Shown: positions 12,657-32,573 of the stretch, in pieces | Layout of the letters: each line of letters starts with the position of its first letter | Position numbering within the stretch: the first letter of the stretch is position 1 | Source: Escherichia coli | GTDB taxonomy: Bacteria; Pseudomonadota; Gammaproteobacteria; Enterobacterales; Enterobacteriaceae | Length of the DNA: 64,000 nucleotides | Direction: 5' to 3' (one strand) | Assembly (NCBI RefSeq): GCF_003991155.1 | Contig: NZ_CP031293.1 | Notes under the pieces: generated by a model | What the model was told of the DNA's origin: nothing | The model's database searches: none | Seen by the model: only the letters and a program-made list of their open reading frames with translations | Translations under genes and position numbers: made by a program

Positions 12657-13664
12657 TTATCGGTAGCGTTTTTGTAGACTGGCTGGAAGATAACGCTGTA
12701 ATGGGGATGGCGTTTCACCTTCAATCAGTTGCGAAATAAGCTCAAAGCAGTGAAAAGCAAGTTGGCGATTATCCTGTTGTATTGTGTCGATTCTTACCGA
12801 AAGTGAATCATACAAGTAATGATCATCAAAACTCGCCAGGTGGATTTTACTGTCGAGTAAATTATATTGGCTCATATAGCGCAGAACGCCTTCCAGTAAT
12901 CCACAAGCGGCAGTGAATAAGGCTTTAGGGGGACGTCCTAAACGAGCGCATAGCGCGGCAAACATTTCATAGCCTGAGCTCGGATGATAATTACCGTGAA
13001 TAATCCATTCAGGTTGTAGCGTTACTCCGGCTTGCTGCAAGCCTTGTGTAAATCCTTCCAGTCGATCGCGAGTCGGTGACAAACGGGGTTGTCCCCCCAG
13101 AAAATAGAATTCATCCGGGTGACTCCGTGCAATATCTGCCACCAGAGCGGTGGTGGGAGAAACAGAGTCAGTAATGACCAATGGCAATGTGCTGCCGTTC
13201 ATGTGGCGATCGAACAACACAACAGGTAATTGCTCGCTAAGTTTTTGATAGTCATTATCATGCAGCATACTGGATGCGACGATTAACCCATCAACCTGGC
13301 GGGCAATCATATTGTTCACCACCATTGTTTCCTGTGAAGGATTTTCATCAGTACAGGATATGAGGAGTTGGACGCCCGCTTCCCGACACAATGTTTCCAG
13401 TTCATGGGAAAATACTGCAAATCCGTAGTTAGTGATTTCAGGAACGACGAGACCAATGGTATGACTGCGGTTGTCCCGTAATGAGCGGGCATGAATGCTG
13501 GGCTGATAATGCTGCTGTTGGGCAATACTCAGCACACGCTCACGCGTTTCCTGCGCAACACGTAACTCTTTGCCACGACCATTGAGAACCAGACTGGCGG
13601 TTGCTTTCGACACTCCCGCCAGTTCAGCAATGTCTTTAATAGTAACGCGTTTGGTTTTTCTCAC
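12657..13664 (-). CDS. scrR: LacI-family sucrose operon repressor
   Basis: 335 aa; N-terminal HTH ([23 protein letters not shown]); position at end of scr operon. Confidence 0.88.
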
Positions 13665-13689
13665 GACGAGGATCCGTAATTCAAAACCC

Positions 13690-16469: not shown

Positions 16470-16529
16470 ATAACCCTCTAATTCATTGTTATTTCAGTAA
16501 AAGCCTCACATCCGTGAGGCTGTCTGGTA

Positions 16530-18071
<1,542 letters not shown>

Positions 18072-18091
18072 TTATAAAAATTGCTAAAATG

Positions 18092-18105
18092 CTAAACCGG
18101 TTTAG
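18092..18105. promoter_or_regulatory. candidate ScrR operator (perfect palindrome CTAAACCGGTTTAG) upstream of scrY
   Basis: 14-bp perfect palindrome in scrK-scrY intergenic region. Confidence 0.6.
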
Positions 18106-18150
18106 GTGTTGATAATAAAGCTGACTTTTTAGCCAGAGCAATTATTTTCG

Positions 18151-18164
18151 CTAAACCGATTTAG
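18151..18164. promoter_or_regulatory. candidate second ScrR operator (CTAAACCGATTTAG)
   Basis: near-perfect copy of the palindrome 59 bp from the first. Confidence 0.55.
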
Positions 18165-18217
18165 TAAATGTGACAGGCACGACAAATCGGGTTACAGATA
18201 CAACAGCAGGATCACTA

Positions 18218-19135
18218 TTATGAAGGGAGATCGTGTTGTCGGGGTAAGGCGGTCATCGCGCCTTTAGCCGTGGTCGCCAGAGCACCACAAATCTGAGCTT
18301 GTGCAATGATTCGTTCAAGCTGTCTGGTATTTGTTGGTATTCCAGAATCAGCCAGACCTGCAAGTAATCCAGCGACAAAAGCATCTCCTGCCCCGGTCGT
18401 ATCGACGACAGAAACAGGTTTGGCGGGATAGTGGATAAACTGCCCCTGAAAATACACAAGTACGCCATTTTTTCCTTGTGTAATAAGCAATAAAGTCAAC
18501 GAATAACGTTGTACTAATGAATATGCGCCTTGCTGAACCTGGCTTTCGCCACTGATGAATAGCAACTCTTCTTCGGACAATTTAGCGATATTCGCCAGCG
18601 AAAGTGCGCGATCAAGGTATTTCCTTAATAGCGCTTCACTCTGCCAGAGATCGCTGCGGATATTGGGATCAAAACTGATGTTTCCGCCAGCCTGACGTAT
18701 TTTCTCCATAGCCAGAAATGCGGTACTTCGGGAAGGTTCTGCACTGAGCGCAATGGAACAAAGATGGAGCCATTCACCCGGCCCAAATGCAGGAAGGTCA
18801 CCAGGTTGTAAAAAAAGATCGGCACTTGGGCGTACCATAAAGGTAAAGTTTCTTTCTCCTTGCTCATCAAGTCCTACAGCCACAATTGAGGTGCGTTGTT
18901 GAGGATCAAGAGACATATAACGTGTATCAACATTTTCTGTACTCAGTGTCTGATACATAAAGCGACCGAAAGGATCATCGCCAACTTTGCCAATAAAGGC
19001 ACTTTTCCCCCCCAGCCTTGCGATACCGACTGCAACATTAGCAGGCGCCCCGCCAGGACACTGTAGTAGTCTCCCCTGGCTTTCGGGTAATAAATCAACA
19101 ACCGCATCACCGAGTACCCATACTCTTGCGCTCAT
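18218..19135 (-). CDS. scrK: fructokinase (PfkB family)
   Basis: 305 aa; PfkB/ribokinase motifs (DTTGAGDAF); first gene of scr cluster; RBS GGAG. Confidence 0.9.
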   Translation of the reverse strand: MSARVWVLGDAVVDLLPESQGRLLQCPGGAPANVAVGIARLGGKSAFIGKVGDDPFGRFMYQTLSTENVDTRYMSLDPQQRTSIVAVGLDEQGERNFTFMVRPSADLFLQPGDLPAFGPGEWLHLCSIALSAEPSRSTAFLAMEKIRQAGGNISFDPNIRSDLWQSEALLRKYLDRALSLANIAKLSEEELLFISGESQVQQGAYSLVQRYSLTLLLITQGKNGVLVYFQGQFIHYPAKPVSVVDTTGAGDAFVAGLLAGLADSGIPTNTRQLERIIAQAQICGALATTAKGAMTALPRQHDLPS

Positions 19136-19166
19136 AAAGGCTCCAATATACTAATTGCTAAACTAA

Positions 19167-19180
19167 TTAAATCGGTTTAG
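19167..19180. promoter_or_regulatory. candidate ScrR operator upstream of scrK (TTAAATCGGTTTAG)
   Basis: third copy of the same half-site pattern in the scrK promoter region. Confidence 0.5.
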
Positions 19181-19299
19181 CAATTAAAGCATAAACGCTG
19201 CTCAGGAGAGAACAATATTCAGCAGTGGTTACCCGGTATTTTGTGGTGGAAACGTGAATATGCCGGGATTAATCATCTACCCGGCACTGTTTATCTCAC

Positions 19300-20778
19300 T
19301 TACGCATTCGACCAGCTCTGGATCGAATCTTCATTCCCCAGCTCACCATGCATCACTTCATACGATTTTTTCAGGATCACATCAGTGTGCTTGGTTAGGT
19401 CTTTGAAAATGCCTTTATTCATCGCGTCGTAGCGTTTGGCATTGCTCTCAATCGGTATGAAGATATCTTTCACGCGAACCATTTTATCGACAGCCGTTGC
19501 GTAATCCGGGTATAGCCCCAGACCTACCGCCGTATTGATCGCTGCCCCCAGACTTGCACAACCATTAATGGCGTTACGGCGTGCCGGAAGGTTGAACACG
19601 TCGGCAAAAATCTGCATAAACAGATCGCTGTTCGAACCGCCGCCAGTAATGATCACATGCTTTGCAAAGTGATTCATTTCATTACACATATTGTCGTAAT
19701 TGTTCTTCAGCGTCAGCGCCACGCTTTCCAGTATCGAACGATATATCCATGCGTAATCCATGCTGGAATCAAAGCCGATCATAATCCCGCGTTTGTATGG
19801 TTCCCACGGATTGGTCAGCCAGTCCAGCACCGTCATCAGACCATTACAGCCAGGCGGCACACAAGACGCTTTTTTGTTGAGCAAATCTTCCGGTGAAAGA
19901 TCCTGTGCTTTGGCATCCTGAATTAACGACTCGCCTAGCATGTCGCGTAGCCAGCTCACCGTCCACATGCCTTTGCGAATACCGTAACCTTCATACAGCA
20001 AGGTTTGCGGAATAGAAGACATAATCGGCCAGTACGCTACCGGATCTTTCGGCAGTGCTTTACCGTTCATCATCAGCGCGATGTAGGTGCCAAGAGAAAT
20101 CACCGCCGTTTCATCATCCAGTAATCCGGCTCCCAGAGCTTCTACCGGTTTATCACTGGTGGTACAAACAACCGGCAGCCCAGCCGGGAAATGTGTCGCC
20201 AGCGCGGCTTGACGAGTGATATGCCCAAGAACAGTGCCCGGCATTTGCACATCAAAAAGCATCTGTCGGGGAATATTAAACTTCTCCATTACCGCGGTAT
20301 CTTCGCTCCATGCCCAGGTCTTATAATCCACCGGCCACTGACCAAAATAGTTGGCGATATTGTCTTTAAACTCGCCGGTTAAGCGATGCGTCAGATAACC
20401 TGAAAAAGAGGTGACATATGCCACGTCAGGATTCGTATGTTCGTAAGGGCGTGTAACGCGTGCATCCTGCCAGCTAATCAACGGCGCAGCTGGCGTGCCA
20501 TCGGCTTTCAATAACGCACGGCAGCAACGGATGGATCCCAGACCAATACCGACAATATCTTCTTTATTTCCGGCAAACTGACTCATCAAATCGTGACCGG
20601 CAAAACATAATGATGCCCATAAATCGTCGTCAGGATGTTCTGCGGTATCGGCATCTGGCGTGTGCATCGGCTGCAATAAGCCTTTGCCTTCGCAAACCAC
20701 ATTACCTTCCAGATCGTACATCACCACTTTTGTGCTCTGACTTCCGCCATCAATCCCTATGATGTATTTTTTCGACAT
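19300..20778 (-). CDS. ygcE: FGGY-family carbohydrate kinase
   Basis: 492 aa; FGGY N-terminal motif (IGIDGGSQSTKVV) and C-terminal domain. Confidence 0.88.
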   Translation of the reverse strand: MSKKYIIGIDGGSQSTKVVMYDLEGNVVCEGKGLLQPMHTPDADTAEHPDDDLWASLCFAGHDLMSQFAGNKEDIVGIGLGSIRCCRALLKADGTPAAPLISWQDARVTRPYEHTNPDVAYVTSFSGYLTHRLTGEFKDNIANYFGQWPVDYKTWAWSEDTAVMEKFNIPRQMLFDVQMPGTVLGHITRQAALATHFPAGLPVVCTTSDKPVEALGAGLLDDETAVISLGTYIALMMNGKALPKDPVAYWPIMSSIPQTLLYEGYGIRKGMWTVSWLRDMLGESLIQDAKAQDLSPEDLLNKKASCVPPGCNGLMTVLDWLTNPWEPYKRGIMIGFDSSMDYAWIYRSILESVALTLKNNYDNMCNEMNHFAKHVIITGGGSNSDLFMQIFADVFNLPARRNAINGCASLGAAINTAVGLGLYPDYATAVDKMVRVKDIFIPIESNAKRYDAMNKGIFKDLTKHTDVILKKSYEVMHGELGNEDSIQSWSNA

Positions 20779-20804
20779 GATTTTTCTCCTGTAATTTTCC
20801 TGGC

Positions 20805-22082
20805 TTACTTGCTGCTAGCCATTGCGGGGGCGCTATCAGCAGTACGAATTTTTTGGAACAGCAAAAAGGTAAAGATGATCACCATGGCAAGCGCCGCCAT
20901 GCCCATTAGCCACATGTTGCGGTAGGCTTCTGCAGCGGGCAGGGTGTCTTGCCAGTGGCCGATAATCGGGTAAACGAAGACATCCGGCAGGAATCCAATC
21001 ACCGAACAAATACCTACCGTGGTGCCCATAATGTAAGACGGTGTTCTCGCTTCGCCGGGGCAGGCCCAGTACAGTCCACGTGAGGCGTAGCAGGTGAATC
21101 CCAGTAGTAAAATCAGGCCAATCCCCATAGCGACCGATTGCGGGTTAGAGTTGGTAACAAGCAGGGCAGTCAGTGCCAGCAGGCCGATGATGGAAAGGAT
21201 TTGAATTACGCGGGTAGGGGATTTCACTTTACTGTAGGTGGTGATAATGCCGCCAAGTGGACCACACAGCGCGCGGAATATTTTGTTGATCACAATCCCC
21301 ATGTAGCTCGCCGCCACCAGCGACATGCCGTACATTTCGGTGAGATAGTTGGTGGAGTAACTCAGAATGGCGTAGATGGTGAAGACGCCAAAAATCACCA
21401 TGCTGCAATACCAGGTGGTGCTGATGCGCAAAACGGCCAGGATGTCGCTAAGCTGGAATGATTGTTTTTCTTCGTTATTGGCACTGCGCAGGTTGTTGTT
21501 ATCGCTAACAAAAAACCAGCACAGAATCCCCAACAAGATGTAAACCACACTATAGATGATAATGACCGTTTTCAGGCTGGCGCTGTCATCCGGTGCAAAG
21601 CGAGAAAAGACCCACATGGTAAACACCGCCAGCGACATTACACCGACGCCGCGCAGCCCTTCCATCCAGCCCATAATTTTCCCTTGCTCGCTATGATCGC
21701 CCAGCAACGATGCGGCTTTAATCGACACCGACCACAGCATTAAAATCGTCGTTATCGCAAAGGCAACCTGAATACAGAGCATTACCCACAGCGGTGGATA
21801 AGTTGCCATTAACAGACCCAGTAATCCGGTAATGATCATCGCGGAAGTAATCATTTTGCGATGTGAGAATTTATCGGCAATAACGCCACTGGGCGCATAA
21901 AGAATAATAGCTGCAATACCAAAGGTACTCATTATTAAACCTATCTCGGTATTGCTGAATCCCATAAATTTCGCCATGGGAATTTGATAAATATAACGTA
22001 AATAAGCCAGGTCGAAACTAACGCCGCCGCTAAAACTAATTATCGCGAGGGTTATCCAACGGCGATATGAGTTGTGTTGCAT
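20805..22082 (-). CDS. yqcE: MFS transporter
   Basis: 425 aa, 12 predicted TM segments. Confidence 0.85.
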   Translation of the reverse strand: MQHNSYRRWITLAIISFSGGVSFDLAYLRYIYQIPMAKFMGFSNTEIGLIMSTFGIAAIILYAPSGVIADKFSHRKMITSAMIITGLLGLLMATYPPLWVMLCIQVAFAITTILMLWSVSIKAASLLGDHSEQGKIMGWMEGLRGVGVMSLAVFTMWVFSRFAPDDSASLKTVIIIYSVVYILLGILCWFFVSDNNNLRSANNEEKQSFQLSDILAVLRISTTWYCSMVIFGVFTIYAILSYSTNYLTEMYGMSLVAASYMGIVINKIFRALCGPLGGIITTYSKVKSPTRVIQILSIIGLLALTALLVTNSNPQSVAMGIGLILLLGFTCYASRGLYWACPGEARTPSYIMGTTVGICSVIGFLPDVFVYPIIGHWQDTLPAAEAYRNMWLMGMAALAMVIIFTFLLFQKIRTADSAPAMASSK

Positions 22083-22104
22083 ATCGTATTCCCATTTGTA
22101 ATAG

Positions 22105-22153
22105 ACAAAAAAAGAGAAAAGTAAGCCGCCCTTTCAGGTGGATTACTTTTCTC
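22105..22153 (-). terminator. leader intrinsic terminator/attenuator about 23 nt upstream of yqcE start
   Basis: 11-bp stem GAGAAAAGTAA/TTACTTTTCTC with 18-nt loop, followed on the minus strand by a 7-T run. Confidence 0.6.
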
Positions 22154-22259
22154 AGGTCTCTAGTAATTGCAATAAGAAATAACATGGAAAGCAGTGGTGT
22201 TGTGTGAGAGTAGTCACGCTTCTGCTTTTTAAAATTATTTGATAATACGAATATCACAC

Positions 22260-22275
22260 TGTGATTACGATCACA
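22260..22275. promoter_or_regulatory. CRP binding site (TGTGA-N6-TCACA) in yqcE/ygcW divergent region
   Basis: TGTGATTACGATCACA is a perfect match to both consensus half-sites. Confidence 0.7.
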
Positions 22276-22327
22276 TTAGCGCTTATGCCCTTATGCTAAA
22301 AATTATATCCAGTTACCAGAGATAATG

Positions 22328-22375
22328 AGAAAGGTAACTTCCCTCTCGCGGGGGAAGTTACCTTTCTTTTTTTTT
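22328..22375 (+). terminator. leader intrinsic terminator/attenuator about 24 nt upstream of ygcW start
   Basis: 16-bp perfect stem (GAAAGGTAACTTCCCC / GGGGAAGTTACCTTTC), 7-nt loop, followed by a 9-T run. Confidence 0.75.
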
Positions 22376-22399
22376 GCTTTACGGAAATTGGAGCTAACT

Positions 22400-23185
22400 A
22401 TGTCAATCGAATCTCTCAATGCGTTCTCAATGGATTTTTTCTCCCTGAAAGGTAAAACATCAATTGTTACCGGCGGGAATAGTGGATTAGGCCAGGCATT
22501 TGCCATGGCGCTGGCCAAGGCTGGCGCAAATGTCTTTATTCCAAGTTTCGTCAAAGATAACGGCGAAACAAAGGAAATGATTGAAAAACAGGGTGTTGAA
22601 GTGGACTTCATGCAGGTGGATATCACCGCAGAAGGCGCACCACAGAAGATTATCGCTGCCTGCTGTGAGCGTTTCGGTACCGTCGATATTCTGGTTAACA
22701 ATGCCGGTATATGTAAGCTGAATAAGGTGCTGGACTTCGGGCGTGCCGACTGGGATCCGATGATTGACGTGAACCTTACCGCCGCATTCGAGTTAAGCTA
22801 TGAAGCTGCAAAAATTATGATCCCGCAGAAAAGCGGTAAAATCATTAATATCTGTTCATTATTCTCTTACTTAGGTGGACAATGGTCACCTGCATATTCT
22901 GCCACTAAACATGCTCTTGCCGGATTCACCAAAGCTTATTGTGATGAACTAGGTCAATATAATATTCAGGTAAATGGTATTGCCCCTGGATATTACGCTA
23001 CCGATATCACCCTGGCGACACGCAGTAATCCAGAAACCAATCAGCGCGTTCTTGATCATATTCCAGCAAACCGTTGGGGCGATACTCAGGATTTAATGGG
23101 CGCAGCCGTCTTCCTCGCAAGTCCGGCTTCAAATTATGTTAACGGGCATTTATTAGTGGTCGATGGCGGTTATTTAGTGCGCTAA
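22400..23185 (+). CDS. ygcW: short-chain dehydrogenase/reductase (KduD-like)
   Basis: 261 aa from internal ATG with RBS GGAG; TGGNSGLG Rossmann motif and YxxxK active site. Confidence 0.85.
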   Translation: MSIESLNAFSMDFFSLKGKTSIVTGGNSGLGQAFAMALAKAGANVFIPSFVKDNGETKEMIEKQGVEVDFMQVDITAEGAPQKIIAACCERFGTVDILVNNAGICKLNKVLDFGRADWDPMIDVNLTAAFELSYEAAKIMIPQKSGKIINICSLFSYLGGQWSPAYSATKHALAGFTKAYCDELGQYNIQVNGIAPGYYATDITLATRSNPETNQRVLDHIPANRWGDTQDLMGAAVFLASPASNYVNGHLLVVDGGYLVR

Positions 23186-23254
23186 TCCATAACGGTGGTT
23201 TCTGTTTTCTCTTATTAATGATTATTCTATTTTTATTATCAGGAAGGAATTACT

Positions 23255-24709
23255 ATGTCTTTATCTCGCGCAGCGATTGTCGACCAGCTAAAGGAAATTG
23301 TTGGTGCAGATCGCGTAATTACCGATGAAACAGTATTAAAGAAAAACAGTATTGACCGTTTTCGCAAATTTCCGGATATTCATGGCATTTATACTTTGCC
23401 GATTCCGGCAGCGGTCGTAAAACTCGGTTCCACAGAACAAGTATCCCGTGTGCTGAATTTTATGAATGCGCACAAAATTAACGGTGTGCCGCGTACCGGT
23501 GCTTCCGCTACCGAAGGTGGACTGGAAACCGTTGTGGAAAACTCGGTGGTGCTCGACGGCTCCGCCATGAATCAAATCATTAATATTGATATTGAGAATA
23601 TGCAGGCCACGGCGCAATGTGGCGTTCCGCTGGAAGTGCTGGAAAACGCGTTGCGTGAAAAAGGTTACACCACGGGGCACTCTCCGCAGTCAAAACCGTT
23701 GGCGCAGATGGGTGGACTGGTGGCGACCCGTAGTATCGGGCAGTTCTCCACACTCTACGGCGCAATCGAGGATATGGTCGTTGGTCTGGAAGCAGTATTG
23801 GCTGATGGCACCGTCACACGTATTAAAAACGTGCCACGCCGCGCGGCTGGCCCGGACATTCGTCACATTATCATCGGCAACGAAGGTGCATTGTGCTATA
23901 TCACTGAAGTAACAGTGAAAATCTTTAAGTTCACCCCGGAAAACAACCTCTTCTACGGCTATATCCTGGAAGACATGAAAACCGGCTTCAACATCCTGCG
24001 TGAAATCATGGTGGAAGGGTATCGTCCGTCGATCGCTCGTTTGTATGACGCTGAAGATGGCACCCAACACTTCACCCATTTTGCCGATGGTAAATGTGTG
24101 CTGATCTTTATGGCTGAAGGTAACCCTCGCATTGCGAAGGCGACGGGCGAAGGGATTGCTGAAATCGTGGCACGTTACCCGCAATGCCAGCGCGTGGACA
24201 GTAAGCTGATCGAAACCTGGTTTAATCACCTGAACTGGGGGCCGGATAAAGTGGCTGCCGAACGTGTGCAGATCCTCAAAACCGGCAACATGGGCTTTAC
24301 CACCGAAGTGTCCGGCTGCTGGAGCTGCATCCACGAAATCTACGAAAGCGTTATTAACCGTATTCGTACCGAGTTCGCGCACGCCGACGACATCACCATG
24401 CTGGGCGGTCACTCCTCTCATAGCTATCAGAACGGCACCAACATGTACTTCGTCTACGACTACAACGTCGTTGACTGTAAGCCGGAAGAGGAAATCGACA
24501 AGTACCACAATCCGCTCAACAAAATCATCTGCGAAGAAACCATTCGTCTCGGCGGTTCGATGGTGCACCACCACGGTATCGGTAAACATCGCGTTCACTG
24601 GAGCAAACTGGAACACGGCAGCGCGTGGGCGTTGCTGGAAGGGCTGAAAAAGCAGTTCGATCCTAATGGCATTATGAACACGGGTACTATCTATCCGATT
24701 GAAAAATAA
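23255..24709 (+). CDS. ygcU: FAD-linked oxidase (alkyl-DHAP synthase / D-lactate dehydrogenase-like)
   Basis: 484 aa; FAD-binding PCMH-type domain. Confidence 0.85.
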   Translation: MSLSRAAIVDQLKEIVGADRVITDETVLKKNSIDRFRKFPDIHGIYTLPIPAAVVKLGSTEQVSRVLNFMNAHKINGVPRTGASATEGGLETVVENSVVLDGSAMNQIINIDIENMQATAQCGVPLEVLENALREKGYTTGHSPQSKPLAQMGGLVATRSIGQFSTLYGAIEDMVVGLEAVLADGTVTRIKNVPRRAAGPDIRHIIIGNEGALCYITEVTVKIFKFTPENNLFYGYILEDMKTGFNILREIMVEGYRPSIARLYDAEDGTQHFTHFADGKCVLIFMAEGNPRIAKATGEGIAEIVARYPQCQRVDSKLIETWFNHLNWGPDKVAAERVQILKTGNMGFTTEVSGCWSCIHEIYESVINRIRTEFAHADDITMLGGHSSHSYQNGTNMYFVYDYNVVDCKPEEEIDKYHNPLNKIICEETIRLGGSMVHHHGIGKHRVHWSKLEHGSAWALLEGLKKQFDPNGIMNTGTIYPIEK

Positions 24710-24802
24710 TGTGTCAGGCAGCGTTCCGCGATGACGGTGCGTTGCCTTTTCGGCTTCTCAGGCGAGAAGCCGTTCTTATTACCGGACAATGAAGGGGTAA
24801 AG

Positions 24803-26140
24803 ATGAACACTTCACCGGTGCGAATGGATGATTTACCGCTTAACCGTTTTCACTGTCGAATTGCTGCGCTCACTTTCGGTGCACACCTGACCGACGGTTA
24901 TGTTCTCGGCGTCATTGGTTACGCCATTATTCAGCTTACGCCCGCCATGCAACTGACGCCGTTTATGGCGGGAATGATCGGCGGCTCGGCGTTACTTGGT
25001 TTGTTTCTTGGCAGCCTGGTTTTGGGGTGGATCTCCGACCATATCGGGCGGCAAAAAATCTTCACCTTCAGTTTTATGCTGATTACGCTCGCTTCGTTCT
25101 TGCAATTTTTTGCCACCACGCCAGAGCATCTTATTGGATTGCGCATTTTGATCGGCATTGGTCTGGGAGGCGATTACTCAGTCGGTCACACCTTGCTGGC
25201 TGAATTTTCCCCGCGCCGCCATCGCGGTATTTTGCTGGGCGCATTCAGTGTGGTGTGGACCGTAGGCTATGTGCTGGCAAGTATTGCCGGACATCACTTT
25301 ATTACCGAAAGCCCGGAGGCCTGGCGCTGGCTGCTGGCATCAGCAGCGTTACCAGCCTTGCTGATTACGCTGCTACGTTGGGGCACGCCGGAATCGCCAC
25401 GCTGGCTACTGCGCCAGGGGCGTTTTGCTGAAGCTCACGCTATCGTGCATCGCTACTTTGGTCCCCATGTTTTACTGGGCGATGAAGTGGCAACGGCGAC
25501 CCATAAACACATCAAAACCTTGTTCTCTTCGCGCTACTGGCGGCGCACAGCGTTTAACAGCGTCTTCTTTGTCTGCCTCGTAATCCCATGGTTTGTGATT
25601 TATACCTGGCTGCCAACTATCGCCCAGACTATTGGACTGGAAGATGCGCTGACTGCCAGCCTGATGCTTAATGCGTTGTTAATTGTTGGCGCGCTGCTGG
25701 GATTAGTTCTGACGCACCTGCTGGCACATCGCAAGTTTTTGCTGGGAAGTTTTTTGCTGCTGGCGGCAACGCTGGTAGTGATGGCCTGTTTGCCTTCCGG
25801 CAGTTCATTAACGCTGCTGCTTTTTGTTCTCTTCAGCACCACCATTTCGGCAGTCAGTAATCTGGTGGGCATTTTGCCTGCGGAAAGTTTTCCTACTGAC
25901 ATTCGCTCGCTGGGCGTCGGTTTTGCCACCGCCATGAGTCGGCTCGGCGCGGCGGTAAGCACTGGTCTGCTGCCGTGGATTCTGGCGCAGTGGGGGATGC
26001 CGGTCACTTTATTGCTTCTGGCGGCAGTGTTGTTGGTTGGTTTTGTTGTGACCTGGTTATGGGCGCCAGAAACCAAAGCTCTCCCGCTGGTGGCGGCGGG
26101 AAATGTAGGAGGTGCGAATGAACATTCTGTTAGCGTTTAA
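24803..26140 (+). CDS. ygcS: MFS transporter
   Basis: 445 aa from internal ATG (RBS GAAGGGG); multiple TM segments. Confidence 0.83.
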   Translation: MNTSPVRMDDLPLNRFHCRIAALTFGAHLTDGYVLGVIGYAIIQLTPAMQLTPFMAGMIGGSALLGLFLGSLVLGWISDHIGRQKIFTFSFMLITLASFLQFFATTPEHLIGLRILIGIGLGGDYSVGHTLLAEFSPRRHRGILLGAFSVVWTVGYVLASIAGHHFITESPEAWRWLLASAALPALLITLLRWGTPESPRWLLRQGRFAEAHAIVHRYFGPHVLLGDEVATATHKHIKTLFSSRYWRRTAFNSVFFVCLVIPWFVIYTWLPTIAQTIGLEDALTASLMLNALLIVGALLGLVLTHLLAHRKFLLGSFLLLAATLVVMACLPSGSSLTLLLFVLFSTTISAVSNLVGILPAESFPTDIRSLGVGFATAMSRLGAAVSTGLLPWILAQWGMPVTLLLLAAVLLVGFVVTWLWAPETKALPLVAAGNVGGANEHSVSV

Positions 26141-26897
26141 AGCCGAACCGGATGCCGGAATGCTGGCGGAAAAAGAGTGGCAGGCGGCGGCTCAGGGTAA
26201 TATTGGACCAGATGTTTCGCTACTGCGAAGTTTACTCGGTGCTGATGAACAGGCTGCCGCCGCGCTGCTGTTGGCGCAGAGAAAAAACGGTACGCCGATG
26301 TCTTTAACCGCGTTGAGCATGGGGGATGAACGGGCGTTGCACTGGCTGCGCTATCTCATGGCTCTTGGGTTTGAGGACGCTGTATTGCTGGAGACGGTGG
26401 CAGATCTGCGCTTTGCGCCGGAATTTGTCGCTCGCCATATTGCCGAATGGCAGCGTCAGAATCCGCTGGATCTGATAATTACCGGCTGCCAAAGCAGCGA
26501 AGGGCAGAATGGGCAAACGCCATTTTTGCTGGCGGAAATGCTGGGCTGGCCCTGCTTCACCCAGGTGGAGCGTTTTACTCTCGACGCGCCGTTTATCACC
26601 CTTGAACAGCGTACTGAACATGGGCTGCGCTGTTACCGGGTTCGCTTGCCTGCGGTGATTGCCGTGCGCCAGTGTGGTGAAGTGGCCTTGCCAGTACCGG
26701 GAATGCGCCAGCGAATGGCTGCGGGGAAAGCAGAAATTATCCGTAAAACTGTTGCTGTCGAATTGCCAGCGATGCAGTGTCTGCAACTGGCAAGAGCAGA
26801 GCAACGACGCGGAGCGACGCTGATTGATGGGCAAACGGTAGCAGAAAAAGCGCAAAAGCTATGGCAGGACTATTTACGCCAAAGGATGCAGCCATGA
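26118..26897 (+). CDS. ygcR: electron transfer flavoprotein beta-subunit-like protein
   Basis: about 259 aa; ETF-beta-like; RBS AGGAGG 6 nt upstream of ATG at 26118. Confidence 0.8.
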   Translation: MNILLAFKAEPDAGMLAEKEWQAAAQGNIGPDVSLLRSLLGADEQAAAALLLAQRKNGTPMSLTALSMGDERALHWLRYLMALGFEDAVLLETVADLRFAPEFVARHIAEWQRQNPLDLIITGCQSSEGQNGQTPFLLAEMLGWPCFTQVERFTLDAPFITLEQRTEHGLRCYRVRLPAVIAVRQCGEVALPVPGMRQRMAAGKAEIIRKTVAVELPAMQCLQLARAEQRRGATLIDGQTVAEKAQKLWQDYLRQRMQP

Positions 26898-27754
26898 ATA
26901 TCGCCATTGTGACAATAAATCAGGAGAATGCCGCAATAGCGAGCTGGCTGGCGGCACAGGATTTCAGCGGTTGTACCCTGGCGCACTGGCAGATTGAACC
27001 TCAGCCCGTAGTGGCGGAACAGGTGCTGGATGCGTTGGTGGAACAGTGGCAGCGAACGCCAGCGGACGTTGTTCTCTTTCCGCCGGGAACGTTTGGTGAT
27101 GAACTGTCGACACGGCTGGCCTGGCGTTTACATGGTGCAAGCATCTGCCAGGTGACTTCATTAGATATTCCAACCGTAAACGTACGCAAATCCCACTGGG
27201 GAAATGCGCTAACGGCGACGCTGCAAACAGAAAAACGCCCGCTATGCCTTTCCCTTGCCCGCCAGGCGGGAGCAGTGAAAAACGCCACATTGCCCTCTGG
27301 TATGCAGCAACTGAACATTGTCCCCGGCGCGCTTCCCGACTGGCTGGTTAGCACAGAGGATCTGAAAAATGTTACCCGTGACCCATTAGCTGAGGCCAGA
27401 CGGGTGCTGGTGGTGGGGCAGGGCGGAGAGGCAGATAACCAGGAAATCGCTATGCTGGCAGAAAAGCTGGGAGCCGAAGTGGGCTACAGTCGGGCGCGAG
27501 TAATGAACGGTGGCGTTGATGCCGAAAAAGTGATTGGTATTTCCGGACATCTGCTGGCACCTGAGGTGTGTATTGTTGTTGGCGCTTCTGGCGCAGCAGC
27601 GTTAATGGCAGGCGTATGCAATAGCAAGTTTGTGGTGGCGATTAATCATGACGCCAGCGCAGCGATATTTTTACAGGCAGATGTTGGCGTGGTTGATGAC
27701 TGGAAAGCGGTGCTGGAGGCACTGGTGACAAACATTCACGCAGATTGCCAATAA
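26894..27754 (+). CDS. ygcQ: electron transfer flavoprotein alpha-subunit-like protein
   Basis: 286 aa; ETF-alpha C-terminal FAD-binding region; start overlaps ygcR stop. Confidence 0.8.
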   Translation: MNIAIVTINQENAAIASWLAAQDFSGCTLAHWQIEPQPVVAEQVLDALVEQWQRTPADVVLFPPGTFGDELSTRLAWRLHGASICQVTSLDIPTVNVRKSHWGNALTATLQTEKRPLCLSLARQAGAVKNATLPSGMQQLNIVPGALPDWLVSTEDLKNVTRDPLAEARRVLVVGQGGEADNQEIAMLAEKLGAEVGYSRARVMNGGVDAEKVIGISGHLLAPEVCIVVGASGAAALMAGVCNSKFVVAINHDASAAIFLQADVGVVDDWKAVLEALVTNIHADCQ

Positions 27755-27756
27755 CG

Positions 27757-27867
27757 TGTTGCCGGATGATCCTGCCTACGGTTCTGGCCTGGGGACTTGT
27801 AAGCCTGATAAGACGCGTCAAGCGTCGCATCAGGCGCTGAATGTCGGATGTGGCGTGCAGCCTACAA
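27757..27867. repeat. REP/BIME repetitive extragenic palindromes
   Basis: GCCGGATG...CCTAC and GCCTGATAAGACGCG...GCGTCGCATCAGGC motifs between convergent ygcQ and ygcP. Confidence 0.75.
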
Positions 27868-27900
27868 ATCACACAAATTCAATTCGTTACGAATATCCCG

Positions 27901-28476
27901 TCAAAGCAATTTTTTCGCTAATGTCCAGACCCCGGTATTCGTGGTGGAAAGCGCCACGACACCTGCGTTAATCGCATTACGCGCATCTTCTTCATCGCAC
28001 ACCAGCCCGCCAGCAATCAGCGGTTGGCGGATTTTCTCCGTCACCCAGCCCAGCACTTTGGGCATACAGCCAGGCAGGATCTCAATACAATCCGGATTCG
28101 ATTGCGCAACTTGCTTATCAATGTTGTGAAACGAAATCGAATCAACAATAAACAGGCGATGAATACAGAAAAAACCTTCCGCTCTTGCTGCTTTCAGCAT
28201 CGATGCTTTCGTGCTGATAATGCCGTCCGCCTCGGTCACCAGTTTCAGAAACTGAATCACCACTTCTTTGTTCGATGCGCCTTCCAGCAAATCGACATGA
28301 ATAAATGCATATTTCCCGGCACTTTTAATCTTTTTGACGATATGACTGATGGTGCAGATATTGCCGTACAACACGGAAATAAACTGGCATTCAGAGTCGA
28401 TTGCCAGTTGCAGGCTGGCATTATCTTTAACGGCAGCAATCACCGGATTCTGGCGGAGCAGGTGTAAGAGGGGCAT
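27901..28476 (-). CDS. ygcP: GlpP-family (glycerol-3-phosphate-responsive type) RNA-binding antiterminator
   Basis: 191 aa with GlpP-like sequence. Confidence 0.8.
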   Translation of the reverse strand: MPLLHLLRQNPVIAAVKDNASLQLAIDSECQFISVLYGNICTISHIVKKIKSAGKYAFIHVDLLEGASNKEVVIQFLKLVTEADGIISTKASMLKAARAEGFFCIHRLFIVDSISFHNIDKQVAQSNPDCIEILPGCMPKVLGWVTEKIRQPLIAGGLVCDEEDARNAINAGVVALSTTNTGVWTLAKKLL

Positions 28477-28492
28477 AAATTATCCTTATTAT

Positions 28493-28753
28493 TTATCCAA
28501 AACGGTAGGTGATGCCGAATCCGGAAGGCGGATAGCGCCACTGTTGTAGTGTTGATTCGTCGCACAGCAAACGGCAGGTGCCACACTCCAGGCAGCCGCG
28601 ATAATCAACGCGTAAGTCACCTTCCGGTGTGAGCGAAAAAAGACCAGCCGGACAAGCGTTAATCAACCGTTGTACCGTCTGGCGCTCAACGGAGTCAGCC
28701 GGAACAATGTGCGGCGCATCGGCAACGCGCCAGAGATTACGGGCTACAGACAT
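28493..28753 (-). CDS. ygcO: ferredoxin-like protein (FixX-like)
   Basis: 86 aa from internal ATG; Cys-rich CPAGLF...CLECGTCRLLC. Confidence 0.8.
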   Translation of the reverse strand: MSVARNLWRVADAPHIVPADSVERQTVQRLINACPAGLFSLTPEGDLRVDYRGCLECGTCRLLCDESTLQQWRYPPSGFGITYRFG

Positions 28754-30015
28754 CGCAGACTCCTGATAACATCGCCCGCCAGATGCCACAGGCCGTGACG
28801 ACGTAAATGACGCCAGAATAACTGGCGCAGCGGTGGAACAGGTTTATCACCCTGATCCCATAAATCGCGGGAAATATCCTGCATTAACGCAGGCCACGCC
28901 CGATACCAGCCAGGGCGTTGCAAAAGCGCCGGAACATGCTGATAACGTTGTAGAACATCCCATAGCAGGCTGCGCTCTACGTTGTGATGATAAAGCGCAA
29001 ACAGATTTTGCGGCTCGCGGTGCTGGCAGGCGCTTATCAGCGTTTGTGCCGCCGCCTGCGCGCCAGTTAGCGCCATATCCATGCCGCGCACGGAAATTCC
29101 GGTATTGACGCAACTGCGCAACGCATCGCCCAGCAGCAGCCAGCCGTTACCGGCGTATTGCACCGGCATACTGTGCAAGCCACCTTCTGGCACCAGATGC
29201 GCACCATACTCCAGTGATTCTGTGTTTTTGATAAGCGGGCGCACTGCCGGATGCGTTTTAAAGCGAGCCAGCAGCTCGCTTGCCGGAACACGACTTTGCG
29301 TAAGGGAAGAGAGCGGGCAAACAATCCCTAACGAGAGCGTTTGTTGATTAGTATAAAGAAATGCGCCGCCGGGTAAGTCATCACAGATCCCGCCGCTGAA
29401 CAGCAACGCTGCGCCTTCGTTATTCTCCAGATGAAAACGTTCTTCAATAGCGGATGTTTCCAGCGACAGCACTTCTTTGATCCCCAACGCCATCGCTTCG
29501 CCAGCAGGACGAGTCACTAACCCGTGACGCTCAGCCAGGACGCTGTTGGCACCTTCTGCCAGCACCACATAACGGGCGCGGAGAATATCGTCACCACAAA
29601 TGACACCACACACCCTGCCGTTTTCTTCATACAGCGCATCCACCGTCGCACCGGGGATGCATTCGACACCTTCTTTTTCGGCTTCGGCAACCAGCCACGG
29701 ATCGAACCGTGCACGTAATACACTCCAGGATTCACCGCCGGGCTGTAAGCTGGAAAACGTCGTTGCGCCATCCGGCGTTAACAGGGAAAGGCTTTCGTGA
29801 GTGATGCGTCGTTCAAGAGGCGCGGTCAGATGAAATTGTGGGAGGAGTTCCGCGAGCGCCTGGGTATATAAACGCCCGCCGGAAAGGTTTTTACTGCCGG
29901 GGATTTCAGCGCGTTCCAGTAACAAAACGGATAAACCCGCTCGCGCGCAGCGTAACGCGCAAGCGGTGCCTGCAATACCGGCACCAATAATAATAATGTC
30001 GCAGTCGTCTTCCAT
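28744..30015 (-). CDS. ygcN: FAD-dependent oxidoreductase (FixC / ETF-quinone oxidoreductase-like)
   Basis: 423 aa from internal ATG; N-terminal GAGIAG dinucleotide-binding motif. Confidence 0.83.
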   Translation of the reverse strand: MEDDCDIIIIGAGIAGTACALRCARAGLSVLLLERAEIPGSKNLSGGRLYTQALAELLPQFHLTAPLERRITHESLSLLTPDGATTFSSLQPGGESWSVLRARFDPWLVAEAEKEGVECIPGATVDALYEENGRVCGVICGDDILRARYVVLAEGANSVLAERHGLVTRPAGEAMALGIKEVLSLETSAIEERFHLENNEGAALLFSGGICDDLPGGAFLYTNQQTLSLGIVCPLSSLTQSRVPASELLARFKTHPAVRPLIKNTESLEYGAHLVPEGGLHSMPVQYAGNGWLLLGDALRSCVNTGISVRGMDMALTGAQAAAQTLISACQHREPQNLFALYHHNVERSLLWDVLQRYQHVPALLQRPGWYRAWPALMQDISRDLWDQGDKPVPPLRQLFWRHLRRHGLWHLAGDVIRSLRCL

Positions 30016-30092
30016 GTCATGCCCCAGATATCCAGAACACAACACCCTAACATAGCGTTACTTAAGGGAAATTGACCGCCGACACACTCTTA

Positions 30093-30458
30093 TCATTCGC
30101 CGCGATAGATACAACCTGCGGTGCAGGTTTCTTTTACCATCACCGCACTTAACAGCGGCACAACGGGTTTAACCTGATCCCAAATCCATTTTGCTAAAAC
30201 TTCGCTGGTTGGGTTTTCCAGACCTGGAATATCATTGAGATAATGGTGATCGAGGCGCTCATAAGTTGGCTTAAACGCCGCTTTCAGTTCAGCGAAATCG
30301 ATAATCCAGCCCGTATGCGGATCGACTTCCCCGGTAATTTCCAGTCGCACCATAAAGGAATGCCCGTGCAGGCGACCACATTTATGTCCTTCCGGGACGT
30401 GTGGTAAGCGGTGAGCGGCTTCGAAGGTGAAATCTTTAAATAACGTGGTGGACATCAT
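30093..30458 (-). CDS. queD: 6-carboxy-5,6,7,8-tetrahydropterin synthase
   Basis: 121 aa from [10 protein letters not shown]; His/Cys zinc motif (CGRLHGHSF). Confidence 0.9.
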
Positions 30459-30773
30459 AATTTCTCTACAGGACGATAAAACCGCCGTAGAGTACCGGAA
30501 AGCCTGTTTTTTCGCATTATCTAAAACGACTTTGTTGCGCAAAATCGCTGATTTATCTTGATGATGGGAAATATTCATTTATTTTTCATTGGGTTGGTTA
30601 ATCTGTTTTGTTGTTAAAGACTATTGCTAAAACAGGTTAGTCGATTTGGTTATTAGTTATCGCTATCCCGTCTTTAATCCACACCGTTCGCCCCGTTAAC
30701 CTTACCTTCTCTTCTGTTTTATGGGCGCTGACAGGGCGCAGAAACAGCTTTGCTTACTGGAACATAACGACGC

Positions 30774-32573
30774 ATGACGACACAGGCCCCACCTTCCGCG
30801 TTGCTTCCGTTGAACCCGGAGCAACTGGCACGCCTTCAGGCGGCCACGACCGATTTAACTCCCACCCAGCTTGCCTGGGTTTCTGGCTATTTCTGGGGCG
30901 TGCTCAACCAGCAGCCTGCTGCGCTTGCAGCGACGCCAGCGCCCGCCGCAGAAATGCCGGGTATAACTATTATCTCCGCCTCGCAAACCGGCAATGCGCG
31001 CCGGGTTGCTGAAGCATTACGCGATGATTTATTGGCAGCAAAACTGAACGTTAAGCTGGTGAACGCGGGCGACTATAAATTCAAACAAATCGCCAGCGAA
31101 AAACTGCTTATCGTGGTGACGTCAACGCAAGGAGAAGGGGAACCGCCGGAAGAAGCCGTCGCGCTGCATAAGTTCCTGTTCTCCAAAAAAGCGCCGAAGC
31201 TGGAAAACACCGCATTTGCCGTGTTTAGCCTCGGCGATAGCTCTTATGAATTTTTCTGCCAGTCCGGGAAAGATTTTGACAGCAAGCTGGCGGAACTGGG
31301 CGGTGAACGCCTGCTCGACCGTGTCGATGCCGATGTTGAATATCAGGCCGCTGCCAGCGAGTGGCGCGCCCGCGTGGTTGATGCGCTTAAATCGCGTGCG
31401 CCTGTCGCGGCACCTTCGCAATCCGTCGCTACTGGCGCGGTAAATGAAATCCACACCAGCCCGTACAGCAAAGACGCGCCGCTGGTGGCGAGCCTCTCTG
31501 TTAACCAGAAAATTACCGGGCGTAACTCTGAAAAAGACGTTCGCCATATCGAAATTGACTTAGGTGACTCGGGCCTGCGTTACCAGCCGGGTGACGCGCT
31601 GGGTGTCTGGTATCAGAACGATCCGGCACTGGTGAAAGAACTTGTCGAACTGCTGTGGCTGAAAGGCGATGAACCTGTCACCGTCGAGGGCAAAACGTTG
31701 CCTCTGAACGAAGCGCTACAGTGGCACTTCGAACTGACCGTCAACACCGCCAACATTGTTGAGAACTATGCCACGCTTACCCGCAGCGAAACGCTGCTGC
31801 CGCTGGTGGGCGATAAAGCGAAGTTACAGCATTACGCCGCGACCACGCCGATTGTCGACATGGTGCGTTTCTCTCCGGCGCAACTGGATGCCGAAGCGCT
31901 GATTAATCTGCTGCGCCCGCTGACCCCGCGCCTGTATTCCATCGCCTCCTCGCAGGCGGAAGTCGAGAACGAAGTACACGTCACCGTTGGCGTGGTGCGT
32001 TACGACGTGGAAGGCCGCGCCCGTGCCGGTGGTGCCTCCAGCTTCCTCGCGGACCGCGTGGAAGAAGAGGGCGAAGTCCGCGTATTTATCGAACATAACG
32101 ACAACTTCCGCCTGCCAGCCAACCCAGAAACCCCGGTGATTATGATTGGCCCAGGCACCGGCATCGCGCCGTTCCGCGCCTTTATGCAGCAGCGCGCCGC
32201 TGACGAAGCGCCGGGTAAAAACTGGTTGTTCTTTGGCAACCCGCACTTTACGGAAGATTTCCTCTACCAGGTGGAGTGGCAGCGCTACGTCAAAGAGGGC
32301 GTGCTGACGCGTATCGATCTTGCCTGGTCGCGCGATCAAAAAGAAAAAATTTACGTACAAGACAAACTGCGCGAACAGGGCGCAGAGCTGTGGCGCTGGA
32401 TCAATGACGGTGCCCACATTTATGTCTGCGGCGACGCTAATCGCATGGCGAAAGACGTTGAGCAGGCACTTCTGGAAGTGATTGCCGAATTTGGTGGCAT
32501 GGACACCGAAGCGGCGGATGAATTTTTAAGTGAGCTGCGCGTAGAGCGCCGTTATCAGCGAGATGTCTACTAA
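30774..32573 (+). CDS. cysJ: sulfite reductase [NADPH] flavoprotein alpha component
   Basis: 599 aa; flavodoxin-like and FAD/NADPH-binding domains. Confidence 0.96.

Follow-up and report, generated by a model that had tools for sequence, protein, structure and literature searches.

Candidate GlpP-type antitermination leaders and an alkyldihydroxyacetonephosphate synthase-like flavoenzyme in the orphan ygc/yqc cluster of Escherichia coli

The described systems that come closest to the ygc/yqc gene cluster of Escherichia coli are one thing for its regulation and another for its enzymes. On the regulatory side stands the GlpP system of Bacillus subtilis (glpD, glpFK and glpTQ), which joins a PF04309 regulator to a promoter-proximal intrinsic terminator, and whose target in the glpD 5' untranslated region has been given as GGUC-CUGAGAUGAGGAGA-GACC (PMC9604022 Table S4). 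On the enzymatic side stands alkyldihydroxyacetonephosphate (alkyl-DHAP) synthase of eukaryotic ether-lipid synthesis (AGPS or ADPS), which has a VAO-type fold for flavin adenine dinucleotide (FAD). In AGPS a tyrosine deprotonates acyl-DHAP at C1, an adduct forms at flavin N5, and the substituent on C1 is expelled (PMC3509576); oxidised FAD is needed, and the substrate reduces the flavin via the N5 adduct (review PMC3509576). Here we compare with both systems the cluster at positions 19300-30015 of a 64,000-nucleotide stretch of E. coli DNA (contig NZ_CP031293.1; the whole stretch is called the window below). Its gene content, its CRP promoters, its terminator/antiterminator leaders with their link to a YgcP-type protein, the AGPS-like signature of the flavoenzyme YgcU and a three-enzyme core are established or strongly supported by the evidence that follows. 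Our best explanation of the whole, to which we give a probability of roughly one half, is a pathway controlled by CRP and YgcP that would turn a C1-substituted glycerol into dihydroxyacetone phosphate (DHAP).

The open reading frame (ORF) list and the RefSeq annotation place the genes in three units, ygcE-yqcE (minus strand), ygcW-ygcU-ygcS-ygcR-ygcQ (plus strand) and ygcN-ygcO-ygcP (minus strand), with gene names taken from RefSeq E. coli genomes that are 100% identical to the stretch. Overlapping stop and start codons (23 nt for ygcS/ygcR, 4 nt for ygcR/ygcQ, 10 nt for ygcN/ygcO) indicate three operons, as follows.

19300..20778, minus strand: ygcE, FGGY-family kinase, 492 aa (Pfam FGGY_N and FGGY_C)
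20805..22082, minus strand: yqcE, major facilitator superfamily (MFS) transporter, 425 aa, first gene of the yqcE-ygcE operon (Pfam MFS_1)
22400..23185, plus strand: ygcW, short-chain dehydrogenase (SDR), 261 aa (Pfam adh_short)
23255..24709, plus strand: ygcU, FAD-linked flavoenzyme, alkyl-DHAP synthase-like, 484 aa (Pfam FAD_binding_4 and FAD-oxidase_C)
24731..26140, plus strand: ygcS, MFS transporter of sugar-porter / aromatic-acid / organic-cation type, 469 aa (Pfam Sugar_tr/MFS_1)
26118..26897, plus strand: ygcR, electron-transfer flavoprotein (ETF) beta / FixA-like subunit, 259 aa (Pfam ETF)
26894..27754, plus strand: ygcQ, ETF alpha / FixB-like subunit, 286 aa (Pfam ETF and ETF_alpha)
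27901..28476, minus strand: ygcP, GlpP-family antiterminator protein, 191 aa (Pfam G3P_antiterm)
28493..28753, minus strand: ygcO, FixX-like ferredoxin, 86 aa (weak Pfam Fer4_9, E 5.6e-4; NCBIfam FixX 84 bits)
28744..30015, minus strand: ygcN, FixC-like flavoprotein, ETF:quinone oxidoreductase-like, 423 aa (Pfam DAO and ETFQO_UQ-bd)

As a set of annotated genes the cluster is not new, and we confirm that it is an orphan. Pfam supports all ten domain assignments of a first-pass annotation of this DNA (an FGGY kinase, two MFS transporters, an SDR, an FAD oxidase, ETF alpha and beta, FixC, FixX and a GlpP-like protein), whose picture of an orphan catabolic cluster equipped with an ETF/FixCX route for electrons is right as to gene content by Pfam and NCBIfam. 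That annotation had also considered the substrate to be unknown in E. coli, in line with what we found: none of the ten proteins reaches an NCBIfam equivalog cut-off (June 2026 release), and full-text searches by gene name, covering few subscription journals, returned incidental mentions and no assigned function. Searches on GlpP targets, on the combination of BCCT, FGGY and ETF, and on betaine-lipid or glyceryl-ether catabolism gave no assignment for the cluster either; a literature or database annotation with a demonstrated substrate, named beforehand as the finding that would speak against orphan status, was looked for and not found. For YgcU, a March 2026 paper has merely 'FAD-binding oxidoreductase' and reports a deletion without effect in its assay, and the source names of 120 homologues are just that or, by similarity, 'alkyldihydroxyacetonephosphate synthase'. 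A possible link of ygcU to D-serine proved a dead end (1.69-fold induction, no deletion phenotype).

The AGPS-like identity of YgcU, which appears to be new, is carried by sequence, by catalytic residues and by fold. Mammalian AGPS is its best solved relative by sequence (E 3e-40), with glycolate oxidase, LctD and D-lactate dehydrogenase (D-LDH) behind, and a profile of 24 YgcU family members matches AGPS at E 2e-61 with the C-terminal cap aligned too. YgcU R262 aligns with AGPS Arg419 (ASIRLMD), Y398 with Tyr578 (GACIYFYF) and H438-440 with the His615-617 loop (SHHHGVGK), and all of these YgcU residues are invariant in the 24 members, which share 54-86% identity. In the AlphaFold model of YgcU (pLDDT 83.5), the top 29 Foldseek matches in the PDB are all AGPS (E ~1e-30, TM-score 0.76-0.84). 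The C-terminal GEHG-type motif of LctD, GlcD and D-LDH, whose Glu and His are metal ligands in that family, is absent from YgcU: its motif is SMVHHHGIGK, where LctD and a second FAD oxidase of Photobacterium have GEHG(I/L)G. Against the GlcD equivalog of NCBIfam YgcU scores 144 bits, with the cut-off at 568.

The genomic company that YgcU keeps was compared across loci encoding YgcU relatives, a fetched set of 63 among them, the Enterobacterales by tblastn of the ten proteins against all loci. Their conserved core is ygcW, ygcU and ygcE, usually with yqcE and usually with ygcP, and the trio of SDR, YgcU and FGGY kinase is the core that is kept across phyla. ETF and FixCX genes are not near the core in Erwinia, Pantoea, Izhakiella, Ewingella and some Serratia, where YgcU is 76-84% identical to that of E. 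coli; outside Enterobacterales, FixCX is absent and etfB-etfA usually lies directly 3' of ygcU. Judged from these neighbourhoods, ETF and FixCX are accessory to the core.

A further pattern emerges in the transporters. BCCT genes stand beside the core in SAR324, Hornefia, a Firmicutes metagenome-assembled genome (MAG; two copies), Photobacterium, Alkalihalobacillus oceani and Sporomusa, OpuA- or OpuC-type betaine ABC systems adjoin it in three Firmicutes loci, and MttB-family methyltransferases do so in two further loci, so that 11 of about 16 non-enteric loci have BCCT, Opu or MttB next to the core. These families handle quaternary ammonium or sulfonium compounds, and an association between the module and the handling of quaternary amines in other phyla seems not to have been described before. 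The first-pass annotation had suggested a polyol or sugar-alcohol pathway; a polyol-type substrate is still compatible with our results, but the ETF/FixCX electron path is accessory and the partner transporters elsewhere are betaine-type rather than sugar-type.

Other neighbours were recorded along the way. Many non-enteric loci encode a second, very divergent FAD oxidase of GEHG type (L065 12187-15591, L062 13233-16789, L067 12241-13782, L068-L072), and two have a second ETF whose alpha subunit carries an N-terminal ferredoxin domain as in LctC; the E. coli cluster has neither. In Erwinia, Pantoea and Serratia (L033 1332-5402, L039, L047, L050), a Fae-like protein (PF08714, formaldehyde-activating enzyme family) and an aldo/keto reductase occur with a ygcS homologue and a LysR regulator, and in the SAR324 MAG (L051 5033-7400) a Fae-like protein and an aldo/keto reductase adjoin the BCCT gene. 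This linkage hints at an aldehyde, possibly formaldehyde, as a by-product. In A. oceani (L066 932-4984), a Lyase_1 protein (aspartase/fumarase family), an aldehyde dehydrogenase and a zinc-dependent alcohol dehydrogenase are encoded 5' of BCCT-SDR-FGGY-YgcU, and could perhaps process a released substituent.

It is tempting to speculate how the three core enzymes might work together. The substrate would be X-CH2-CHOH-CH2OH, a glycerol with a C1 substituent X that is, for instance, ether-linked or of onium type. FGGY kinases phosphorylate primary hydroxyls, and YgcE would phosphorylate the free one to give a glycerol-3-phosphate analogue. SDRs like KduD and gluconate 5-dehydrogenase oxidise a secondary alcohol adjacent to a terminal CH2OH, and YgcW would oxidise C2 to the ketone, which is the alkyl-DHAP reductase step reversed. 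YgcU would then follow the AGPS mechanism, in which the Tyr helps to deprotonate C1, a covalent adduct forms at flavin N5 and X is expelled, yielding X and DHAP, the latter destined for glycolysis. Electrons from the YgcU flavin would pass to YgcRQ (ETF), on to YgcNO (an ETF:quinone oxidoreductase of FixCX type) and into the quinone pool, a chain that may either keep the YgcU flavin oxidised or serve a net two-electron oxidation, and YqcE and YgcS may import the substrate, export the released group, or both. The idea of a C1-substituted glycerol would account for three enzymes sufficing, for a regulator from a family that senses glycerol 3-phosphate, for an AGPS-like flavoenzyme and for betaine-type transporters elsewhere. 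We nevertheless advance this conversion by YgcE, YgcW and YgcU as tentative, with the odds somewhat against it.

More speculative still, the core of kinase, SDR and AGPS-like flavoenzyme, with or without ETF, might be a widespread undescribed bacterial route that cleaves C1-substituted glycerols to DHAP, the first steps of ether-lipid synthesis in reverse, and that in E. coli would be switched by a GlpP-type riboregulator sensing a phosphorylated intermediate. Deacylated betaine lipids are glyceryl ethers of quaternary amines; candidate substrates would be the glyceryl-ether head groups of deacylated betaine lipids (DGTS, DGTA, DGCC), other glyceryl ethers or onium-glycerols. Carnitine itself was rejected as a lead idea because FGGY kinases use primary hydroxyls and because its product would not be a central metabolite. 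The sulfonate dihydroxypropanesulfonate (DHPS) was likewise set aside, as the partner transporters are those for cations or zwitterions.

Several points weigh against the AGPS-type chemistry. Identity between YgcU and AGPS is just 23-26%, and D-LDH is nearly as close in fold (TM-score 0.78, E 9e-28, Foldseek). The AGPS N-terminal domain, gating helix and long C16 tunnel are absent from YgcU: the profile alignment begins at AGPS residue 178 and leaves AGPS 433-523, the lipid-channel segment, unaligned, and YgcU has 484 residues against 658, being shorter by about 170 N-terminal residues. Without these N-terminal and lipid-tunnel parts, YgcU is AGPS-like and not an AGPS; it is also soluble, bacterial, encoded in a catabolic operon and partnered with an ETF. 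AGPS chemistry is redox-neutral, and it is not obvious that a dedicated ETF/FixCX chain would be needed. YgcW (related to KduD and gluconate 5-dehydrogenase) and YgcE (related to LsrK and xylulokinase) would equally fit a derivative of a 5- or 6-carbon sugar. Finally, neither a BCCT nor an Opu transporter is encoded in the E. coli cluster, whose transporters are MFS, and the best family match of YqcE, a weak one, is the D-galactonate transporter subfamily TIGR00893, an anion-type MFS.

The main rival is a conventional polyol or sugar-acid pathway, against which the odds are likewise somewhat turned. In such a pathway YgcW and YgcE would make a phosphorylated keto-sugar, and YgcU would be an ordinary ETF-dependent dehydrogenase (LctD/EtfAB- or GlpD-like) of a 2-hydroxy acid or polyol phosphate, passing electrons via YgcRQ and YgcNO to quinone; regulation would be unchanged. 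YgcW almost qualifies as KduD (2-dehydro-3-deoxy-D-gluconate 5-dehydrogenase), at 347.7 bits with an equivalog cut-off of 369, a near miss that suggests a close relative of probably different specificity, and its nearest solved structures are 2-deoxy-D-gluconate 3-dehydrogenase and gluconate 5-dehydrogenases. For YgcE the nearest solved structure is LsrK, followed by glycerol kinases, and its NCBIfam scores are led by XylB (142 bits, cut-off 380) and LsrK (141, cut-off 528), with GlpK at 102 (cut-off 590); by these equivalog cut-offs it belongs to none of XylB, LsrK, GlpK, GntK, AraB and FucK.

A dedicated ETF/FixCX chain, too, would most simply mean net oxidation, and YgcU shares its fold with D-LDH and LctD and has etfBA next to it in many genomes. 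LctBCD of Acetobacterium woodii (PDB 7qh2) resembles this arrangement in having a FAD_binding_4 dehydrogenase gene adjoining etfB and etfA, but YgcU has HHHG where LctD has GEHG, YgcQ is without the N-terminal ferredoxin domain of LctC, and E. coli adds a quinone link of FixCX type. The same invariant HHHG, against GEHG in both LctD and the second FAD oxidase, speaks against an ordinary dehydrogenase, as do the retained catalytic Tyr and Arg of AGPS, the loci that keep YgcU at 76-84% identity with no ETF/FixCX nearby, and transporter partners that are of betaine rather than sugar type. Erythritol catabolism in Brucella (EryA kinase, EryB FAD dehydrogenase) shares the sequence of an FGGY kinase followed by flavin-linked oxidation of a polyol phosphate, but EryB is GlpD-type (DAO family), and that pathway is not known to involve an ETF, an AGPS-like enzyme or an antiterminator.

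The ETF and FixCX proteins invite a different comparison. With ETF beta, ETF alpha, a FixC-like protein with a UQ-binding domain and a FixX-like ferredoxin, the cluster encodes a full FixABCX-type set, and since all four scores lie below the FixA/B/C/X equivalog cut-offs, the set is best seen as paralogous. YgcO scores 84 bits against FixX (cut-off 166), and YgcN scores 378 bits against NF007450 and 362 bits against FixC, both under cut-off. YgcR and YgcQ are very divergent (best PDB match of YgcR, E 1e-10), and their best PDB matches mix non-bifurcating (5ow0, 1efv, 1efp) with bifurcating (7qh2, 5ol2) ETFs. FixABCX, with caiTABCDE, and YdiQRST of E. coli have the same four-protein set, each attached to a specific catabolic cluster, but the ygc partner is a VAO-family flavoenzyme and not an acyl-CoA dehydrogenase, and the genes are split across two operons.

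Perhaps the system works reductively in the manner of FixABCX/cai, with YgcNO and YgcRQ feeding quinol or NADH electrons to YgcU, which would cleave the C-N or C-O bond of a quaternary amine anaerobically. That the four proteins are FixABCX paralogues, that BCCT, Opu and MttB genes are associated with the module and that many of its hosts are strict anaerobes would all suit such a function. We consider it unlikely, as the E. coli cluster has no quaternary-amine transporter and as a kinase, an SDR and a GlpP-type sensor suit carbon assimilation better than an electron sink.

Two further observations concern these accessory proteins and the transporters. In Enterobacterales (L006-L031), divergence is much faster among the ETF and FixCX proteins than in the core: between Klebsiella spallanzanii and E. 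coli, identities are 97% for YgcW, 94% for YgcU and 95% for YgcP, and 74% for YgcR, 58% for YgcQ, 71% for YgcO and 78% for YgcN, and for YgcR and YgcQ of Pluralibacter and Mixta the identity is down to 39-47% with YgcU still at 91%. Relaxed constraint and replacement by paralogues are both possibilities. All NCBIfam subfamily matches of YgcS are under cut-off; a metabolic-engineering paper (PMC8601175) names YgcS 37 times in the context of nicotinamide mononucleotide production, which may bear on cationic or zwitterionic handling by YgcS.

The regulatory half of our explanation rests on the 317-bp divergent region between yqcE and ygcW (22083-22399), in which each of the two divergent operons is preceded by a leader RNA element.

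22297..22377, plus strand: ygcW leader RNA element (covariance-model match, 87 bits)
22312-22317 (GUUACC) and 22333-22338 (GGUAAC), plus strand: ygcW antiterminator arms, 15-nt loop AGAGAUAAUGAGAAA
22327-22368, plus strand: ygcW terminator, 19-bp stem, with U-tract 22369-22375; ends ~24 nt 5' of the AUG at 22400
22105..22182, minus strand: yqcE leader RNA element (covariance-model match, 84 bits)
22167-22162 (AUUACU) and 22147-22142 (AGUAAU), minus strand: yqcE antiterminator arms, 14-nt loop AGAGACCUGAGAAA
22153-22114, minus strand: yqcE terminator, with U-tract 22113-22107; ends ~25-30 nt 5' of the AUG

A terminator scan finds a perfect 19-bp hairpin followed by a T run at 22327-22375. Folded alone, the terminator hairpins reach -31 kcal/mol (ygcW) and -20.5 kcal/mol (yqcE), and the 103-nt ygcW leader folds at -41 kcal/mol (z -6.4); the antiterminator hairpins alone reach -6.7 (ygcW) and -1.4 kcal/mol (yqcE). 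Because these small hairpins are weak against strong terminators, termination would be the default state. The two terminators have a stem base in common (GAGAAARGUAA / UUACYUUUCUC), and in both leaders the 3' arm of the 6-bp antiterminator hairpin supplies the first bases of the terminator 5' arm. The antiterminator loop, of 14-19 nt, holds two GAGA boxes (GAGA...GAGAAA).

Both leaders carry such a terminator 25-45 nt 5' of the ATG in about 50 Enterobacterales loci. Among 96 distinct leaders (alignment A1), a 'GAG' box, a 'GAGAAA-G' box and the terminator stem base are invariant, and the terminator apex covaries freely. For the antiterminator stem, 91.7% of cells pair in A1 (MAFFT), 58 of them double-change cells, a result matched by none of 500 shuffles and compared with 16-60% in slid controls; realignment on the UURC motif, with distant copies included, gives 56 distinct variants and 97.9% paired cells (0 of 2000 shuffles match). 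Compensatory changes fall at position 1 (G-C/A-U), position 4 (A-U/G-C; four cases, Firmicutes among them) and position 6 (U-A/C-G).

Within the window, the covariance model built from these leaders (R1) finds just these two copies. It finds no third copy 5' of ygcN, where a hairpin spans the start codon and is not significant; that ygcNOP is without the element fits if the regulator must precede induction. No Rfam family covers the leaders (scan of 18000-31500, E up to 1), and RefSeq annotates no feature at their positions. The same scan gave two chance-level matches only, a snoRNA model inside ygcE and naRNA4 at 27803-27835, and the latter weak match (29 bits) is explained by a repetitive extragenic palindromic (REP)-type palindrome, GCCTGATAAGACGCGTCAAGCGTCGCATCAGGC, at 27800-27840 between the convergent ygcQ and ygcP. 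A BLAST search with the 41-nt element against all E. coli genomes is too insensitive, missing even the yqcE copy. In Limnobaculum eriocheiris (L035 3057-3186) the yqcE-ygcW intergenic region is just 130 bp, with one palindromic terminator between A-runs and T-runs that seemingly serves both directions and with upstream antiterminator arms not recognisable.

Directly upstream of each leader lies a predicted promoter with a CRP site and an extended -10 element.

22203..22218: CRP site, yqcE side, TGTGAGAGTAGTCACG, centre 41.5 nt 5' of the predicted yqcE transcription start (~22169, minus strand)
22184-22176, minus strand: yqcE extended -10, TGtTATTTC
22260..22275: CRP site, ygcW side, TGTGATTACGATCACA, perfect consensus, centre 41.5 nt 5' of the predicted ygcW transcription start (~22309)
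22294-22302, plus strand: ygcW extended -10, TGcTAAAAA

With transcription starts predicted from sequence, both promoters have the layout of class II CRP-dependent promoters. On the yqcE side, a CRP site with at most one mismatch lies 42.5-44.5 nt from the hairpin arm in all 50 loci and TGnTA 15-17 nt from it in 49 of 50; the position of the ygcW-side CRP site is kept in 52 of 52. Taking both sides together, the CRP centre lies 42.5-45.5 nt and TGnTA 15-18 nt 5' of the hairpin arm in essentially all 50-52 loci. These sites are not without precedent, as chromatin immunoprecipitation sequencing (ChIP-seq) of CRP in enterotoxigenic E. coli H10407 lists a target 'ygcW/yqcE' with exactly the ygcW-side site (PMC4287617), and yqcE-ygcE has been listed as Crp-activated (PMC8085971).

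The proposed regulator of both leaders is YgcP, which matches G3P_antiterm (PF04309) over the full profile (E 2.5e-62) and PDB 3kts, a 'glycerol uptake operon antiterminator', at E 4.6e-28. Judged by eye and by folding, the ygc leaders are like the B. subtilis glpD leader, where a small hairpin (-6.1 kcal/mol) faces a terminator of -42 kcal/mol and the GACC arm lies in the terminator 5' arm. Common to both are a short tandem-GAGA hairpin whose 3' arm overlaps the terminator 5' arm, a pairing with catabolite control, and an expected inducer that is the phosphorylated product of the pathway kinase. The ygc system differs in that its host is a proteobacterium, its catabolite control is by CRP and not CcpA, its targets are non-glp, and YgcP is encoded with FixCX-like genes. 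The YgcP ligand is probably not glycerol 3-phosphate itself, because E. coli makes that compound constantly. To our knowledge GlpP-type antitermination has not been studied in any proteobacterium, and the finding that E. coli and its relatives have two GlpP-type leader elements, each behind a CRP promoter, appears to be new.

The distribution of the element supports the assignment to YgcP. Outside the enteric bacteria it occurs beside ygcP homologues in a Syntrophomonadaceae MAG and, in two copies each, in a Firmicutes MAG, Enterococcus canis, Photobacterium gaetbulicola and Sporomusa; element scores are clear in five of the six searched non-enteric loci with a ygcP homologue (L054, L062, L063, L065, L067). 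By the covariance model, none of seven related loci without a ygcP homologue (L051, L053, L061, L064, L066, L068, L069) has it. L070 and L072 encode a ygcP homologue and lay outside the element search. Two loci count against a strict association: Hornefia (L058), which has a ygcP homologue and just a marginal element match (21 bits, E 0.06), and Serratia microhaemolytica (L032), which has both elements and no ygcP detected in the fetched stretch.

We postulate the following sequence of events, which as a regulatory model of CRP promoters combined with YgcP-controlled leader antitermination we think very probable. Two divergent class II CRP promoters would drive yqcE-ygcE and ygcWUSRQ, each transcript beginning about 3 nt 5' of the weak 6-bp hairpin. 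The terminator would form by default and halt transcription some 25-30 nt 5' of the start codon. YgcP, made from the separate ygcNOP operon, would in its inducer-bound form attach to the small hairpin, stabilise it and thereby block the terminator; the inducer would be a phosphorylated compound, most likely the one that YgcE produces.

Could the leader hairpins instead be ordinary terminators or a metabolite-binding riboswitch on which YgcP does not act? The small hairpins are indeed not significantly stabler than shuffled sequence. We judge this improbable, however, as each terminator is sense-oriented and separates a promoter from the gene that it serves, in a divergent region with no upstream gene to be terminated; the conserved part, a 6-bp stem with a loop of 14-19 nt, is too small for a typical aptamer; and the element tracks ygcP homologues in the sampled loci (apart from the two partial exceptions above) and resembles the GlpP target of glpD. 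That E. coli carries the cluster as a cryptic relic, decaying and without present function, is most improbable of all, for although no inducing condition or phenotype is reported in the literature covered and most of the stretch is missing from about 7% of complete E. coli genomes, none of the ten ORFs is disrupted, 5060 of 5426 complete genomes (93%) have the stretch at no less than 80% coverage, core proteins are 80-97% identical between Enterobacterales genera, and promoters, CRP sites and RNA elements are kept base for base.

Some observations concern the surroundings of the cluster and the locus set. Between queE and ygcE the window holds a sucrose (scr-type) island (12657-19135) with genes for a LacI-family regulator, a sucrose-6-phosphate hydrolase, a sucrose phosphotransferase system (PTS) IIBC protein, a carbohydrate porin and a fructokinase-like 'aminoimidazole riboside kinase'. 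In the K-12 gene order ygcE adjoins queE, and the island accordingly looks like a strain-variable insertion beside the cluster. Two loci with source names outside Enterobacterales, 'Planctomycetota MAG' (L003) and 'Chryseobacterium sp.' (L026), encode a YgcU 99% and 88% identical to that of E. coli; gene order in L026 is enterobacterial, and on L003 ygcU alone was detected. Both contigs probably reflect contamination with, or mis-binning of, DNA from enterobacteria.

Ten long-standing 'y-genes' of E. coli, found in 93% of strains, make up the ygc/yqc cluster, and its enzyme module is without a characterised counterpart. The two leader elements provide a direct handle on it, since a leader-reporter fusion would reveal the inducer, and removal of the terminators or overproduction of YgcP would turn the cluster on for phenotype and metabolite screens. 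The YgcP system would add GlpP-type antitermination to the proteobacteria and so broaden known gene control in E. coli. If the AGPS-like reading of YgcU is true, the module would mark, in marine bacteria and gut anaerobes, a sink that takes up glycerol-linked quaternary-amine compounds, which are abundant, and that may be connected with the formation of trimethylamine, and if the route from C1-substituted glycerol is true, it would be the first catabolic use of alkyl-DHAP synthase chemistry. These findings overturn nothing in current knowledge; rather, they make a long-standing gap in the E. coli gene list experimentally approachable.

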